A stretch of DNA of 64,000 nt from an uncultured Chloroflexia bacterium (GTDB lineage: Bacteria; Chloroflexota; Chloroflexia; QHBQ01; JADMIH01): contig CAWCNY010000002.1 of the NCBI GenBank assembly GCA_963797095.1, positions 576,001 to 640,000 of the forward strand. Reading direction: 5' to 3'. Below the pieces are notes generated by a model that did not search any database, was not told the DNA's origin, and saw only the letters and a program-made list of their open reading frames with translations. Positions 35,104 through 58,708 of the stretch are shown here, one piece after another; positions within the stretch are counted from its first letter, which is position 1, and each line of letters starts with the position of its first letter. The translations under genes were made by a program, and so were the position numbers.

Positions 35104-35146
35104 TTCACCTGATTACACCCGATTTGTCACCCGCTGCCTGTAAGAT
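35104..35146 (+). promoter_or_regulatory. Direct-repeat regulon promoter (eno)
   Basis: TTCACC 35104, TACACC 35114, GTCACC 35126, 9-nt gap, TAAGAT 35141. Confidence 0.65.
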
Positions 35147-35244
35147 ATTTTCGGTTGCACACTGCACCTCTGCCCTGACTTCCCCACCGGCCAGGCCTCC
35201 GCTTGCGGCTCAACCTCATTCTTAGATCAGGAGAACACAATACC

Positions 35245-36552
35245 ATGCCTAGAATTGATTATGTACATGCCCGCGAGATACTCGACTCCAGGGGCAATCC
35301 CACCGTTGAAGTTGATGTGCGCCTTGATAATGGAGCTTTCGCTCGTACCGCCGTTCCTTCCGGCGCGTCCACCGGCAGCCAGGAGGCGCTTGAATTGCGC
35401 GATGGCGACAAGGGTCGCTTCGGCGGTAAGGGCGTGCTTCATGCCGTGTCCGCAGTGAACGAGATCATAGCCCCGGCGGTGCTTGGCAAGGAGGCTACCG
35501 AGCAGGCATCCCTCGACCGGGACCTGATAGAGCTTGATAGCACGCCCAACAAGTCGAAGTTGGGAGCCAACGCTATACTGGGGGTCTCGGTGGCCGTAGC
35601 CCGTGCGTCCGCAGCCGCCCAGGGCGTGCCTCTCTACCGCTACCTGGCGCACATGTCAGGCACCCCAGACGATGATCTCACCCTGCCCGTGCCTTTGCTC
35701 AACATCATGAACGGAGGCAAGCATGCTGCCCGCTCCACCGATTTGCAGGAGTTCATGATAGCGCCCCTTGGAGCCGGTAGTTTCACCGAAGCCTTGCGTT
35801 GGGCGTCCGAGATTTACCACTCTCTCGGTAAAGTGCTGAAGGAGCGCGGCCTGAGCACCCATGTGGGCGACGAAGGCGGCTATGCTCCAAGCCTGGGGAG
35901 CAACAACGAAGCCGTGGAGGTCATCCTGCGTGCCATTGAGCAGGCAGGTTACAGGCCGGGCGAGCAGGTCGCCATCGCGCTCGACCCCGCTGCCTCCGAG
36001 TTCTATACCGAAGGCGAGGGCTACCGGCTAGCAATAGAGGATCGCACCTTGTCAAGCGAGGAGATGGTGGAGTTCTACGCCGGTTGGGTGGAGCGTTACC
36101 CGATTATCTCCCTTGAGGATGGTCTGGCCGAGGGTGACTGGGCCGGTTGGAAGGTCCTCTATAAGAGGTTGGGCGACACGATACAGGTAATGGGCGACGA
36201 CATTTTCGTCACCAACCCAGCGATCATCCGCCGGGGCATCGAGGAGAGGGTTGCCAATTCGGTGCTCATCAAGCTTAACCAGATCGGCACGCTCACCGAA
36301 ACGCTGGAAGCTATCAAGCTCGCTCATAACGTCGGCTGGACGGCCGTCGTATCTCACCGCTCAGGCGAGACGGAAGACACCACCATAGCAGACCTGGCGG
36401 TTGGCCTCAACACCATGCAGATCAAGACAGGCGCGCCCGCTCGTGGCGAGCGTGTCGCGAAGTACAACCAGCTTATGCGCATCGAGGAGGAGTTAGGCGC
36501 AGCACATTATGCCGGGCGAGCAGCCTTCTCGCACATGTTGGTGAAACGATAA
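35245..36552 (+). CDS. eno: Enolase
   Basis: [59 protein letters not shown]. Confidence 0.98.
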
Positions 36553-36628
36553 ATTAGAGCTGATAAACCGAGTTGCGAGTTGCGAGTTTTTGGTACAACC
36601 TCCCGCTTCCCTAAGCGGTCCTATTATT

Positions 36629-36682
36629 GCCACCGGGCGTTCACCTCCGTTTACCACCCGTTCCACCTTCATCCTTTAGATT
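36629..36682 (+). promoter_or_regulatory. Direct-repeat regulon promoter (SQR-like gene)
   Basis: GCCACC 36629, TTCACC 36640, TTTACC 36650, TCCACC 36662, 9-nt gap, TAGATT 36677. Confidence 0.7.
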
Positions 36683-36704
36683 TGATACTGGAGGCCCACA
36701 CGTG

Positions 36705-36781
36705 GTAGTTGGCAGTCGGTAGTCGGTAGTCGGATCTTCGGGCTAAATACTCGTCACCCGTCACCCGTCACCCGTCACTCG
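36705..36781. repeat. Heptamer tandem repeats (TAGTCGG)n and (CCGTCAC)n
   Basis: Direct reading of the sequence; a (GAGTTGC)n tract also lies at 36570-36588. Confidence 0.8.
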
Positions 36782-36808
36782 CTTCCTTCTCGCAATCAGA
36801 TATATGTC

Positions 36809-38096
36809 ATGAAGAATCTGACTTAAAGGAAAGCCCAGGATCATAATATTAGGCGGAGGCTTTGGTGGTCTAGAGGCCGCTCTCTATCTGCGAGCACGCA
36901 TGCCCGATCAGGCCGACATCACCATTGTTTCCGACAAAGACTACTTCCTCTTCAAGCCCAACACCATCTACATACCTTTCGGCCTCGACCCTCGCAAGCT
37001 CCTCGTTCATCTATCGAAGCCTGTCCAGCGCAGAAACATAAATCTCATCAACGCCAGCGCCCGCGAAATAGACCCCATCTCCAGGCGCGTCTATTTCGAT
37101 AGCCACACCGACCTCCCCGACCTCTCGTACGACTATCTCGTAGTCGCCACAGGCGCGGAGATGCGTCCTGGTGCCATCCCCGGCATGAGCCAATACTCCC
37201 ACACTATCAGCACCACCGCCGACATGCTCCAACTGCGCGAGGCCTTCCACCACCTCCTCGACGACCCAGGCAGAGCGCGCACACGAAAAGTGCTATTCCT
37301 CGTCCCGCCCAACAACAAGTGCTCCGGCCCCCTCTACGAAATGGCGATCATGCTCGATACCTGGCTCAAGCGCAAGAGAGCGCGCCATCAAATAGACATA
37401 ACCTGGTCCACATACGAGGAGAGCTACCTCCAGGCTTTTGGCCCCCGCCTGCACGAAGTAGTAACCCGCGAGTTCCAACAGCGCAACATCACCGGGTACA
37501 ACAGCTATGTGGTCGACAGAGTAGAAAAAGGCCAGGTCGTATACAAAAACGACCAGAGCCTCCCCTTCGACCTGCTGGTCTCCTTCCCACCTTACGAAGC
37601 CTCATCGCGCTTCCTCCATCTCCCCATTGACGAGCGCGGTTTCATAGCCACCAACCTCGAATCAAGGCAGGTGGTCGGCTATCCCGGCGTCTATGCCGTG
37701 GGCGATGCCTCCGACTTCCCCGTAAAACAGGCGTTCCTCGCCTTCCTGCAAGCCGATGCCGCCGCCGACCACCTGAGCGCCGAGATACTTGGCACCGCGC
37801 CCGCTGTGGCGTTCGAGCCTTCCAATCTCTGCATCTCAGATGAGTCCGACGACTACCGGCTACCGGCTACAGGCAACTCGGAACCTGGAACTCGGAACAA
37901 TGAACTCGGAACAATGCGCCCTGATGTCAACCATCTGTACAAGGTAGGCTCGTCGCCGATCTGGCGGCTTGGCAAGATGGCCCTGGGCCTCTATCTACCC
38001 TGGCGTTTCAAGGCAGACAACCCCTTCTACGCCAATGTCCCCTGGAAAGGGATCGAGGCGGGCGTCAAGCTCATGTCGGGTCCGGCGTCTCGCTAA
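36809..38096 (+). pseudogene. Sulfide:quinone oxidoreductase-like FAD-dependent oxidoreductase, frameshifted near the start
   Basis: The dinucleotide motif KPRIIILGGGFGG (36831-36869) lies upstream of the track start. ATG 36809 joins it only if one T at 36823-36824 is removed. KCSGPLYE and YAVGD are SQR-like. Confidence 0.7.
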
Positions 38097-57174: not shown

Positions 57175-57177
57175 AAA

Positions 57178-57300
57178 GTGACGAGTGACGAGTGACGAGT
57201 AACAACGCAATACGCAATACGCAATACGCAATACGCAATACGCAATACGCAATAGCCACTCTCCACTCTCCACTCTCCACTCTCCACTCTCCACTCTCCA
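57178..57300. repeat. Composite heptamer array (GTGACGA)3-GTAACAA-(CGCAATA)7-G-(CCACTCT)6
   Basis: Direct reading; fills almost the whole space between a stop codon and the next RBS. Confidence 0.95.
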
Positions 57301-57315
57301 GAAGGGACAACCATC

Positions 57316-58569
57316 ATGCATACACTATGGAATCAGCGCTTCGCGCAGCGCACTCAAAGGATGTCCGGCTCGATCATACGTGAGCTTCTCAAATTGACCG
57401 AACAGGATGGCATAATCTCGTTCGCGGGTGGACTTCCTGCCCCCGAAGTATTTCCGGTAGACGAGGTGGAAGCTGCCGTCACAAGGGTCTTGACAGACCA
57501 CGGACCCCAGGCTCTGCAATACAGCACTACCGAAGGCTACCATCCCCTGCGCGACCTGCTTGCTAGCCACACCGCCCGCTATGGCATCCACATCACCGCC
57601 GAAAACGTCCTCATTACATCAGGCTCGCAGCAGGCACTCGACCTCCTCGGCAAAGTCTTCATCAACCGAGGAGATCGAATATTGGTGGAGGCCCCCACCT
57701 ATCTAGGAGCCTTGCAGGCCTGGAACTCCTACGGAGCCGAGTATGTGCCTGTGCCTGCAGATGAGGATGGCATGAACACCGGCGGGCTTGAAGCGGCCTT
57801 GCGCGTCGGACCTAAGTTCATCTATGTCTTGCCCAACTTCCAGAACCCCACTGGTGTCACTCTAAGCCTGGAGCGCCGCCGCAAACTCGTTGCGCTGGCC
57901 GACCACTACGGCGTCCCCATCATCGAAGACGACCCCTATGGGCAGCTACGCTATGAAGGCAAGCACCTCCCTCCCGTCGCGGTTCTTGATGAACAGAGCT
58001 GGCATCGTGGCGAATACTCTTATTCCGGCAACGTGATCTATCTGAGTACCTTCTCAAAGACATTGGCCCCTGGCCTCCGGTTAGGTTGGGTGGTGGCCGC
58101 TCCTGAGGTGATCGCCAAAATGGCCCAGGCCAAGCAAGGTGCTGACCTTCACACATCCACCTTCACCCAGATGGTGGCCTATGAGGTCGCCAAGAACGGC
58201 TTCATCGACCATCATGTGCAACTGATCCGCAAGGTCTACAGCGAGCGCCGTGATATCATGCTTGAGGCCATGCAGGCCCACTTCCCCGAAGGCGTGCGTT
58301 GGACGCACCCGGATGGCGGCCTCTTCCTCTGGGTCACCCTTCCTGAATCGCTCGATGCCGCCGAATTACTCAAGAAAGCCATAAAGCAGAGGGTGGCTTT
58401 CGTGCCTGGCGCTCCTTTCTTCCCCTGTGGAGGTGGGCATAACACCATGCGCCTCAACTTCTCCAACGCCTCCCCCGACGCCATCCGGGCCGGGATCGCC
58501 AGGCTGGGAGATGTGCTGAAGGCAGAATTGGCAGCTCCCACAATGGAATATAGCCTGGCGATACCCTGA
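57316..58569 (+). CDS. PLP-dependent aminotransferase class I (LysN/ARO8-like)
   Basis: ISFAGGLP, LQYSTTEG, NFQNPTG, EDDPY, TFSKTLAPGLRLGW, MRLNFS. Confidence 0.92.
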   Translation: MHTLWNQRFAQRTQRMSGSIIRELLKLTEQDGIISFAGGLPAPEVFPVDEVEAAVTRVLTDHGPQALQYSTTEGYHPLRDLLASHTARYGIHITAENVLITSGSQQALDLLGKVFINRGDRILVEAPTYLGALQAWNSYGAEYVPVPADEDGMNTGGLEAALRVGPKFIYVLPNFQNPTGVTLSLERRRKLVALADHYGVPIIEDDPYGQLRYEGKHLPPVAVLDEQSWHRGEYSYSGNVIYLSTFSKTLAPGLRLGWVVAAPEVIAKMAQAKQGADLHTSTFTQMVAYEVAKNGFIDHHVQLIRKVYSERRDIMLEAMQAHFPEGVRWTHPDGGLFLWVTLPESLDAAELLKKAIKQRVAFVPGAPFFPCGGGHNTMRLNFSNASPDAIRAGIARLGDVLKAELAAPTMEYSLAIP

Positions 58570-58588
58570 TTATCCTCTGCACAGGCTT

Positions 58589-58635
58589 CAAAAGCGGGCT
58601 AGGCCTCGATTTGTTCACCTCTAAGCCCGCTTTTG
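58589..58635 (+). terminator. Intrinsic terminator after aminotransferase
   Basis: CAAAAGCGGGCT...AGCCCGCTTTTG. Confidence 0.6.
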
Positions 58636-58654
58636 GATTTGATGTGGTCTGATT

Positions 58655-58708
58655 TTCACCAGCTATTTACCGGATTTCACGGTCTCCTCCACCCTACGGT
58701 GCTAAAGT
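58655..58708 (+). promoter_or_regulatory. Direct-repeat regulon promoter (nifJ operon)
   Basis: TTCACC 58655, TTTACC 58666, TTCACG 58676, TCCACC 58688, 9-nt gap, TAAAGT 58703. Confidence 0.75.

Follow-up and report, generated by a model that had tools for sequence, protein, structure and literature searches.

Genes and promoters of the window

The stretch of DNA analysed here, 64 kb from the genome of an uncultured Chloroflexia bacterium (the window), carries eight promoters built on one architecture of short direct repeats, and this report concerns those arrays and the regulator that may bind them. Gene identities were taken from Pfam and agree with the names given in a preliminary description of the window. 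The first of the genes is an extra enolase paralogue (35203..36552, +), followed by a Pyr_redox_2 flavoprotein, termed SQR-like in that description (36900..38096, +), and by cydA, cydB and cydDC-type ABC-transporter genes (38336..44497, +). Next come the gene for a DUF4342 protein (44564..44839, -) and a NiFe-hydrogenase operon (45064..53030, +), which encodes a Fer4_22 subunit, a cNMP-binding-domain protein of 201 amino acids (aa; 46251-46856, +), a NAD-binding/Fe-S subunit, the small and large subunits, a hydrolase, a HycI protease and a DHO_dh-like protein. A Toast_rack_N/LiaF-like protein (53175..54212, -) is followed by the alpha, beta and gamma genes of a 2-oxoacid:ferredoxin oxidoreductase with an aminotransferase (54743..58569, +), and the last of the set is nifJ (1230 aa) with a DHO_dh-like gene (58880..63676, +). 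The second cydDC-type ABC gene is found in two open reading frames (ORFs), a membrane part at 42766-43878 and, past a gap, a C-terminal ATPase part at 44048-44497, and may be split or frameshifted.

All eight arrays reported in the preliminary description, upstream of eno, the SQR-like gene, cydA, DUF4342, hyhB, the toast-rack gene, the ferredoxin (fdx)/vor operon and nifJ, were recovered at the positions given there. So was their hexamer consensus, (T/G)T(C/T)ACC, in a count over 32 hexamers (position 1, T23/G8; position 2, T19/C9/A4; position 3, C17/T10; position 4, A30; position 5, C31; position 6, C26). Spacings are given start-to-start, and scores are those of a weight matrix made from 31 hexamers, each with two flanking bases, which evaluates three to four hexamers with a spacing tolerance of +/-1 nucleotide (nt) and ignores the -10 box. 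When the arrays are aligned on the -10 hexamer the last repeat ends exactly 9 nt before it in all eight, as had been claimed, and the box is TAnnnT in seven and CATACT at cydA. An exact 11-10-12 spacing had been put at six of the eight arrays, whereas it was counted in five. These are the arrays of the SQR-like gene (36629..36682, +; GCCACC, TTCACC, TTTACC, TCCACC; -10 box TAGATT; score 31.2), the DUF4342 gene (44910..44963, -; ATTACC, GATACC, GTTACC, GTAACC; TACAGT; score 31.1), the hydrogenase (hyhB-like) operon (44996..45049, +; TTCACT, TTCACC, TTCACC, TTCATC; TACACT; score 34.9), the 2-oxoacid:ferredoxin oxidoreductase (vor/por-type) operon (54303..54356, +; GTCACT, TTGACC, TATACC, TCTACC; TACAGT; score 28.6) and nifJ, the pyruvate:ferredoxin oxidoreductase (PFOR) gene (58655..58708, +; TTCACC, TTTACC, TTCACG, TCCACC; TAAAGT; score 34.6). 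The exceptions are the eno paralogue, which has three hexamers at 10-12 (35104..35146, +; TTCACC, TACACC, GTCACC; TAAGAT at 35141-35146; score 27.6), cydA, at 10-10-12 with a weak first hexamer TAACGC (38122..38175, +; then TCTACC, TTCACC, TCTACC; score 34.3), and the toast-rack/LiaF-like gene, at 10-11-12 (54219..54272, -; GCAACC, GTCACC, TACACC, TTCACC; TAGAGT; score 34.0). The last three hexamers stand at 10-12 in seven of the eight arrays. Two divergent pairs do carry mirror-image arrays, that of DUF4342 and hyhB (44910-44963, - and 44996-45049, +) and that of the toast-rack gene and the fdx/vor operon (54219-54272, - and 54303-54356, +).

Some smaller features adjoin these promoters. The GTG start of the toast-rack gene lies only ~6 nt past its -10 box (54210-54224, -) and its mRNA is therefore probably leaderless. 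An ORF of 77 aa follows the fdx/vor promoter. The SQR-like array is bracketed by tandem heptamers, CGAGTTG units before it (36569-36590) and GTAGTCG units after it (36715-36740), which resemble short tandemly repeated repetitive (STRR) sequences.

The arrays in the source genome

The source genome of the window (G000; 6.02 Mb, 93% complete, contigs labelled C1, C2, etc.) was scanned with the weight matrix, and the same genome reversed, not complemented, served as the chance control. Within the 64 kb of the window the eight sites score 27.6-34.9 and the next best site on either strand scores 20.9. Genome-wide the matrix finds 43 sites at >=26, 58 at >=24 and 26 at >=30, for which the control gives 3, 9 and 1 respectively, so that the motif is not, as the preliminary description had thought worth checking, equally frequent by chance. 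The -10 box, which the matrix does not score, gives a second measure: of the 43 sites scoring >=26, 33 have TAnnnT at exactly +9, against ~1% predicted from base composition, and in the noise band (score 20-24) only 7 of 50 sites have it. A strict pattern of three hexamers and a -10 box (KHHACY-N4-KHHACY-N6-KHHACY-N9-TANNNT, the fourth hexamer not being required) has 16 matches in the genome and none in its reverse. The array observation is real and far beyond chance.

The architecture seen in the window holds across the genome. The 9-nt phase to the -10 box is exact in 46 of the 58 sites scoring >=24. A set of 45 distinct sites (score >=24 and [TC]AnnnT at +9) has the exact 11-10-12 spacing in 33 and 12 nt between the last two hexamers in 44; G/C immediately precedes the -10 box (29 and 28 sites), and TGG is found at +11 to +13 from the start of the -10 box, where the start site is expected. 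The arrays span about -60 to -22. The suggestion that the repeats stand in for a -35 element is borne out, in that, over the 16-18 nt distance from the -10 box, 37 of the 45 sites match TTGACA at no more than two of its six positions, which is not above what random TAnnnT sites give.

The regulon comprises about 45-55 promoters across the genome. Among the first genes behind the 49 further sites, 32 have a Pfam family and 17 are unknowns. The former include genes for GAPDH, pyruvate kinase, ADP-forming acetyl-CoA synthetase, malic enzyme/PTA, thiolase and glutamate dehydrogenase, as well as FeoB (feoAB operon), ferritin, two flavodoxins, AsnA and GcvT; the regulators among them are TetR, LacI and PocR-HTH (three). 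Judged from such annotations, the regulon reads as a fermentative, low-oxygen and iron programme. Second copies exist of several of its enzymes, namely GAPDH, nifJ, glutamate dehydrogenase and enolase. The window enolase is ~61% identical to the housekeeping copy on contig C1, which has no array, and at the housekeeping enolase loci of 28 relatives no array scoring >=19 was found; the orthologue of the window enolase in a related genome (G035, 72% identical) does have an array. Two identical arrays (C5:164712, + and C3:87800, -; score 34.6) each precede the same 448-aa ORF without a Pfam family, a duplicated and perhaps mobile member of the regulon.

Conservation among the Chloroflexia

Orthologues of nifJ in five other genomes of the same genus and of a second family (G004, G015, G018, G034, G037) have an array upstream, with differing spacer sequences. 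A survey with the strict pattern was made over 301 Chloroflexia genomes grouped by family (f1, f2, etc.), for which the backward pattern served as control and gave 0-1 matches per genome. The pattern is frequent in f1 (15/25 genomes), f2 (5/5), f3 (8/9), f6 (15/16, with up to 32 matches in a genome), f9 (1/1) and f16 (2/3), and near zero in f10 (1/60), f11 (1/11), f14 (0/37), f7 (0/9) and f13 (0/13). The fourth hexamer, which the pattern does not demand, is at the right place in nearly all matches from other families. First genes in those families include nifJ, B12-radical-SAM enzymes, hemerythrin, alcohol dehydrogenase, an enolase paralogue, thiolase, flavodoxin and DoxX, and Usp proteins account for 6 of 29 first genes in f2/f3. 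As a negative control, 80 distant cydA loci of other lineages (<=66% identity) were inspected, and an array plus -10 box precedes cydA at none of them. The regulon is thus genome-wide and conserved in several families of Chloroflexia and is therefore not a feature of the window cluster alone. The preliminary description had a low-oxygen cluster co-activated by one regulator; the character of the gene set stands, in so far as sequence can tell, while its restriction to the cluster does not.

The candidate regulator and its kinase

No gene with a Trans_reg_C domain lies in the window, in keeping with the earlier proposal that the regulator is encoded elsewhere, and the source genome has 20. The candidate put forward here is an OmpR-family response regulator (Trans_reg_C, PF00486) at C5:12235-12954. 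Orthologues, counted at E<=1e-72 for families and at >=57% identity for single genomes, are present in f1 (25/25), f2 (5/5), f3 (8/9), f6 (14/16), f9 (1/1) and f16 (2/3), and absent from f10 (0/60), f11 (0/11), f14 (0/37) and f7 (0/9). The distribution of the regulator over families matches that of the motif. Genome by genome, the strict pattern occurs in 37 of 46 genomes with the regulator and in 20 of 254 without it, and 13 of those 20 have single matches, the noise level of the control.

The regulator and the arrays are also neighbours. A scan of 27 regulator loci (array score >=19.9; three loci from unpublished genomes left out) found an array in the adjoining intergenic region at 22, including the loci of five genomes without any match to the strict pattern. 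At most loci the array drives a divergent neighbour, encoding acetyl-CoA hydrolase, a CBS protein, Usp or DoxX. In f2 and f6 array and regulator share a strand, the f6 array preceding an operon of a PAS kinase and the regulator, and autoregulation is therefore implied there.

The partner kinase (C5:12976-14283, 435 aa) consists of GAF, HisKA (PF00512) and HATPase domains. Its GAF domain (residues 41-186) aligns end to end with that of the Mycobacterium tuberculosis sensor DosT (2vzw; E 2e-36 over 146 residues) and, at about 1e-32, with DevS/DosS (2w3d/2y8h). Alignment counting finds the His of 'HPPM' at the position of the proximal His149 of DosS and the Tyr of 'LYLTDK' at that of the distal Tyr171, the numbering being that given in PMC4082495, and the domain is accordingly assigned, by likeness, to the DosT/DevS type, which would bind haem. 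The same GAF type adjoins the regulator at 17 of 26 loci within the class (74-84% identity) and at four more (55-59%). The number of GAF domains varies: there is one in the kinase of the source genome and in G030, and there are two in the orthologues in G004, G015 and G014. An orphan GAF-GAF kinase of the same type in a genome of f6 (G047; 2vzw, 3e-31) is itself behind an array. Family co-distribution, adjacency at 22 of 27 loci and the pairing with a haem-type GAF kinase together favour the earlier proposal of a single OmpR/PhoB-type response regulator, and the last of the three supports the low-oxygen reading.

Beyond the class, 300 genomes were sampled from the phylum, 268 of them outside Chloroflexia. 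The strict pattern was found in 16 of the 268, mostly as single matches, and in six of these the match sits 63-216 nt from an independently found homologue of the regulator. Three genomes of one genus in another class (family f35) have a nearly identical array 63-78 nt past the stop of the homologue (G323:C19:17544, G334:C311:2697, G345:C90:5985), and in two of the three a second array lies on its other side; the f35 system seems compact.

A proposed mechanism

It is probable, in our judgement, that the arrays are the operator-promoters of a conserved regulon responding to low oxygen (or to nitric oxide (NO), carbon monoxide (CO) or redox state), bound by the C5 OmpR-family regulator under the control of a kinase with a DosT/DevS-type haem-GAF domain. 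The soluble GAF-HisKA-HATPase kinase would be switched on by the loss of oxygen, or by the binding of NO or CO, at the haem. The phosphorylated regulator would occupy the repeats in head-to-tail order, probably in the form of two dimers, and from four repeats that share one face of the helix would replace the missing -35 contact and bring in RNA polymerase in the manner of a class II, Pho-box-like activator. The predicted output is a fermentative or microaerobic metabolism with extra glycolytic isoenzymes, pyruvate- and 2-oxoacid:ferredoxin oxidoreductases, ADP-forming acetyl-CoA synthetase and hydrogenase, to which cytochrome bd, ferrous-iron uptake, ferritin and flavodoxins would be added.

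A number of observations weigh against this proposal. Related genomes in the surveys are not independent samples, and the regulator was chosen after five candidates had been tested. The sequencing runs listed for the window are two of DNA, with small shares of it, and none of RNA. The source genome is itself among the five regulator loci without an array, none being found near the regulator operon, and a search within that genome therefore missed this regulator. Five genomes of the same genus have the regulator and an adjoining array yet no matches to the strict pattern elsewhere; the size of the regulon therefore varies widely. At the threshold used there is no orthologue in G089 (9 matches, 93% complete) or G018 (7 matches, 79% complete). 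Outside the class an array was found at only 4 of 19 homologue loci, and the link between regulator and array is therefore not universal at that distance. As for the signal, the kinase in the f6 operon is of PAS type and not of GAF type, and that of the source genome, with its single GAF domain, is followed by a CopC/CopD gene and could point to a signal of another kind. The arrangement of the repeats is also compatible with repression, quite unlikely though we take this to be.

Alternative explanations

Under the first alternative another OmpR-family regulator of the source genome, at C3:246034-246831 or C2:1005904-1006593, binds the arrays and the DosT-like system is only a conserved member of the regulon. 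Of 17 full OmpR-type regulators these two alone are shared by the motif-rich genomes of the same genus, G015 and G004, but missing from its motif-poor members G012, G014 and G019. The C3 regulator lies in an operon with an unknown protein of 220 aa, a HAMP kinase and a CoA-disulfide reductase/rhodanese, preceded by a weak array (C3:245112, score 20.9, CATACT at +9) that is kept in G015 (20.7). Its orthologues (>=62% identity) are found in G015, G018, G004, G035, G026, G034 and G020, which have 11, 7, 7, 10, 6, 2 and 3 pattern matches respectively. However, no orthologue above the level of paralogues (53-54%) was found in the motif-bearing f6, G033 and G036, nor in any of the five f2 genomes, and its own array is missing at six of seven orthologue loci; the C3 regulator was rejected because it was not found in f6 or f2. 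The C2 regulator has an array 93 nt upstream of its orthologue in G035, but seven of the eight orthologue loci in the order lack one. It was rejected because orthologues at 61-73% identity are present in the motif-less families f10 (50/60), f11 (10/11) and f14 (16/37), and there are none in f6. An alternative of this kind is considered unlikely, and the C3:245112 array operon may instead be a second regulatory tier of the regulon.

Other regulators were rejected on similar grounds. A search for arrays near regulators within the source genome, as would be expected from autoregulation, turned up no more than two sites, the weak one at C3:245112 and the feoAB promoter, which stands upstream of a further regulator (C3:640475-641305). 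This regulator was rejected on account of its own CTTAAC-N5-CTTAAT repeat and its presence in motif-poor genomes. A regulator preceded by an array in f6 (G104, G047) was rejected since the array is found at only three of four close paralogues and at none in a widespread group at 51-55% identity; its recognition helix differs, a cupredoxin gene follows, and it is treated as a member of the regulon. NCBIfam models applied to the 17 regulators of the source genome gave no equivalog reaching its cut-off and no equivalog-level match to ArcA or others.

The feoAB-linked regulator-kinase pair has features of its own. Upstream of it (C3:641306-641420, -) stand CTTAAC-N5-CTTAAT, then TTAACC, 9 nt and TATATT. 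The repeat presumably resembles a PmrA-type box, and the pair may be an iron-sensing system.

A second alternative concerns the sense of the control, the arrays being sites of a repressor or of a dual-function regulator, so that the promoters are occluded in oxic conditions rather than activated in hypoxia. A span over the core promoter from about -60 to -22 would also fit occlusion, and Streptomyces PhoP both activates and represses through similar repeats (PMC2691820). However, promoters without a -35 element should, for that very lack, be weak without an activator, and activators in contact with polymerase typically show such a phase to the -10 box, exact at 9 nt. We therefore take the C5 regulator to be, putatively, an activator.

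A third and very unlikely alternative is that the repeats are bound by an activator of the Streptomyces antibiotic regulatory protein (SARP) type, an OmpR-like winged helix with a BTAD domain as in AfsR and ActII-ORF4, which adapts the sigma factor to promoters lacking a -35 element. SARP promoters have no -35 element and carry direct repeats at 11 or 22 bp with the 3' repeat 8 bp from the -10 box, the afs box spanning about -40 to -19 (PMC10936776). This rule suits the arrays nearly as well as the Pho-box-like reading, in that 9 nt separate the last hexamer from the -10 box (8 nt when the repeat is counted as a heptamer) and the two proximal repeats lie at about -39 to -17. The source genome has at least four BTAD proteins, behind one of which (C3:305044) lies a weak array (19.4). 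On the other side, the spacing is 11-10-12 and not a strict 11, and no SARP genes were found beside arrays. The small SARP was rejected for want of co-distribution with the motif, as its orthologues are confined to the genus and include the motif-less G012, while generic SARP homologues occur in all 60 genomes of the motif-less f10. SARP activation is kept as a minor rival, since a SARP gene that follows the motif was not found, the small SARP being the one tested and the three large BTAD proteins lying outside that test. Co-distribution and adjacency favour the OmpR-family regulator, which has no BTAD domain.

It is scarcely credible that the arrays are Pho boxes of a phosphate-starvation regulator, although the hexamer resembles the core of the 11-nt repeat G(G/T)TCAYYYR(G/C)G given for Streptomyces PhoP (PMC2275107). 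A regulator and a PAS kinase of its own accompany the pstS-pstCAB-phoU cluster (C4:300-307 kb), no array scoring >=16 was found in C4:297-313 kb, where TTGTTAACA-type repeats stand upstream of the pst cluster instead, and there are no phosphate-uptake genes among the 57 first genes; with a cluster under its own regulator and a different box, the arrays are therefore not those of a Pho regulon. Activation through periodic repeats of the RemA type (PMC8481266) was rejected, as no RemA (PF04025) match was found in the 93%-complete source genome.

The repeats upstream of the pst cluster (TTGTTAACA / TGCTAACC, G000:C4:307330-307410, -) lie at multiples of 11 nt and are likely the Pho box of the source organism.

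Relation to known systems

The closest counterpart on the sensor side is the DosS(DevS)/DosT-DosR system of M. tuberculosis. To judge from the alignments, the two would share the GAF type with its proximal His and distal Tyr; two GAF domains, as in DosS/DosT, are found in the kinases of relatives, while that of the source genome differs in having one; and Usp proteins are numerous in the regulon of relatives. In M. tuberculosis the core of DosS is HisKA_3, and DosR belongs to the NarL/LuxR type and has palindromic sites. Here, by contrast, the transmitter is HisKA (PF00512), the regulator is of the OmpR family with Trans_reg_C (PF00486), four direct repeats in place of a -35 element form the operator, and fermentation, hydrogenase and cytochrome bd would make up the output where the mycobacterial system has its dormancy set.

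ArcB-ArcA, ResE-ResD and SrrB-SrrA are systems in which OmpR-family regulators reprogramme respiration and fermentation as oxygen falls, by way of direct repeats. Their kinases are membrane proteins that read the quinone or respiratory state and not soluble haem-GAF kinases, and their motifs differ from the arrays described here.

On the operator side the nearest relative is the Pho box of Streptomyces PhoP, also made of tandem direct repeats about one helical turn apart near -35. The PhoP repeats comprise two to eight units with a core GTTCAY, close to (T/G)T(C/T)ACC, and the units are strictly 11 nt, one of 10 nt nearly abolishing binding (PMC2275107). The arrays differ in their 11-10-12 spacing, signal and gene set, and the pst cluster of the source genome uses another box. 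They do have the traits of a putative class II activator of the Pho-box kind: direct repeats at helical turns, a fixed distance to the -10 box in place of a -35 element, and a winged-helix regulator linked to them by comparison of genomes.

The PolS-PolR system of Microlunatus phosphovorus resembles both sides. A section of the report on it (PMC6754071) describes a DevS-like kinase with two GAF domains and binding of PolR to GTTCACnnnnnGTTCaC, 6-bp direct repeats 11 nt apart, and the hexamer of the arrays resembles this reported site. However, PolR is 76% identical to DevR, a helix-turn-helix protein and not of the OmpR family, its targets are phosphate and polyphosphate genes, and its site has two repeats, for which that section describes no fixed -10 architecture (PMC6754071).

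In a search of the literature no account came up, for Chloroflexota, of the motif or of the pairing between a DosT-like kinase and an OmpR regulator. Pho-box-type operators and Dos-type sensors are known kinds and the combination is a variant of both. A bolder suggestion, offered tentatively and with more doubt than confidence, is that a DosT-type haem-GAF sensor rewired to a HisKA core and to an OmpR-family regulator reading TTCAC-type direct repeats is an ancient, cross-phylum switch for oxygen or NO. Occurring in several Chloroflexota lineages, it would replace FNR, ArcA or DosR in these soil bacteria and wire ~50 promoters, among them those of duplicate 'hypoxic' glycolytic isoenzymes, hydrogenase and PFOR.

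How Chloroflexia regulate their genes in response to oxygen is essentially uncharted territory. If the proposal is correct, it would supply a sequence rule that predicts a hypoxia regulon in hundreds of uncultured soil genomes and a list of unknown genes under low-oxygen control. A well-studied sensor module of a pathogen would have been reused with a different output pathway, and one regulator, one soluble kinase and a defined operator would make a simple test system in vitro. Aerobic-looking soil bacteria would also appear to keep a dedicated fermentative programme with glycolytic paralogues of its own.

Other features of the window

Away from the arrays, uvrB (12548-16222, -) is split by an intein with a LAGLIDADG homing endonuclease, as seen from its Pfam Intein_splicing, LAGLIDADG_3 and UvrB domains.

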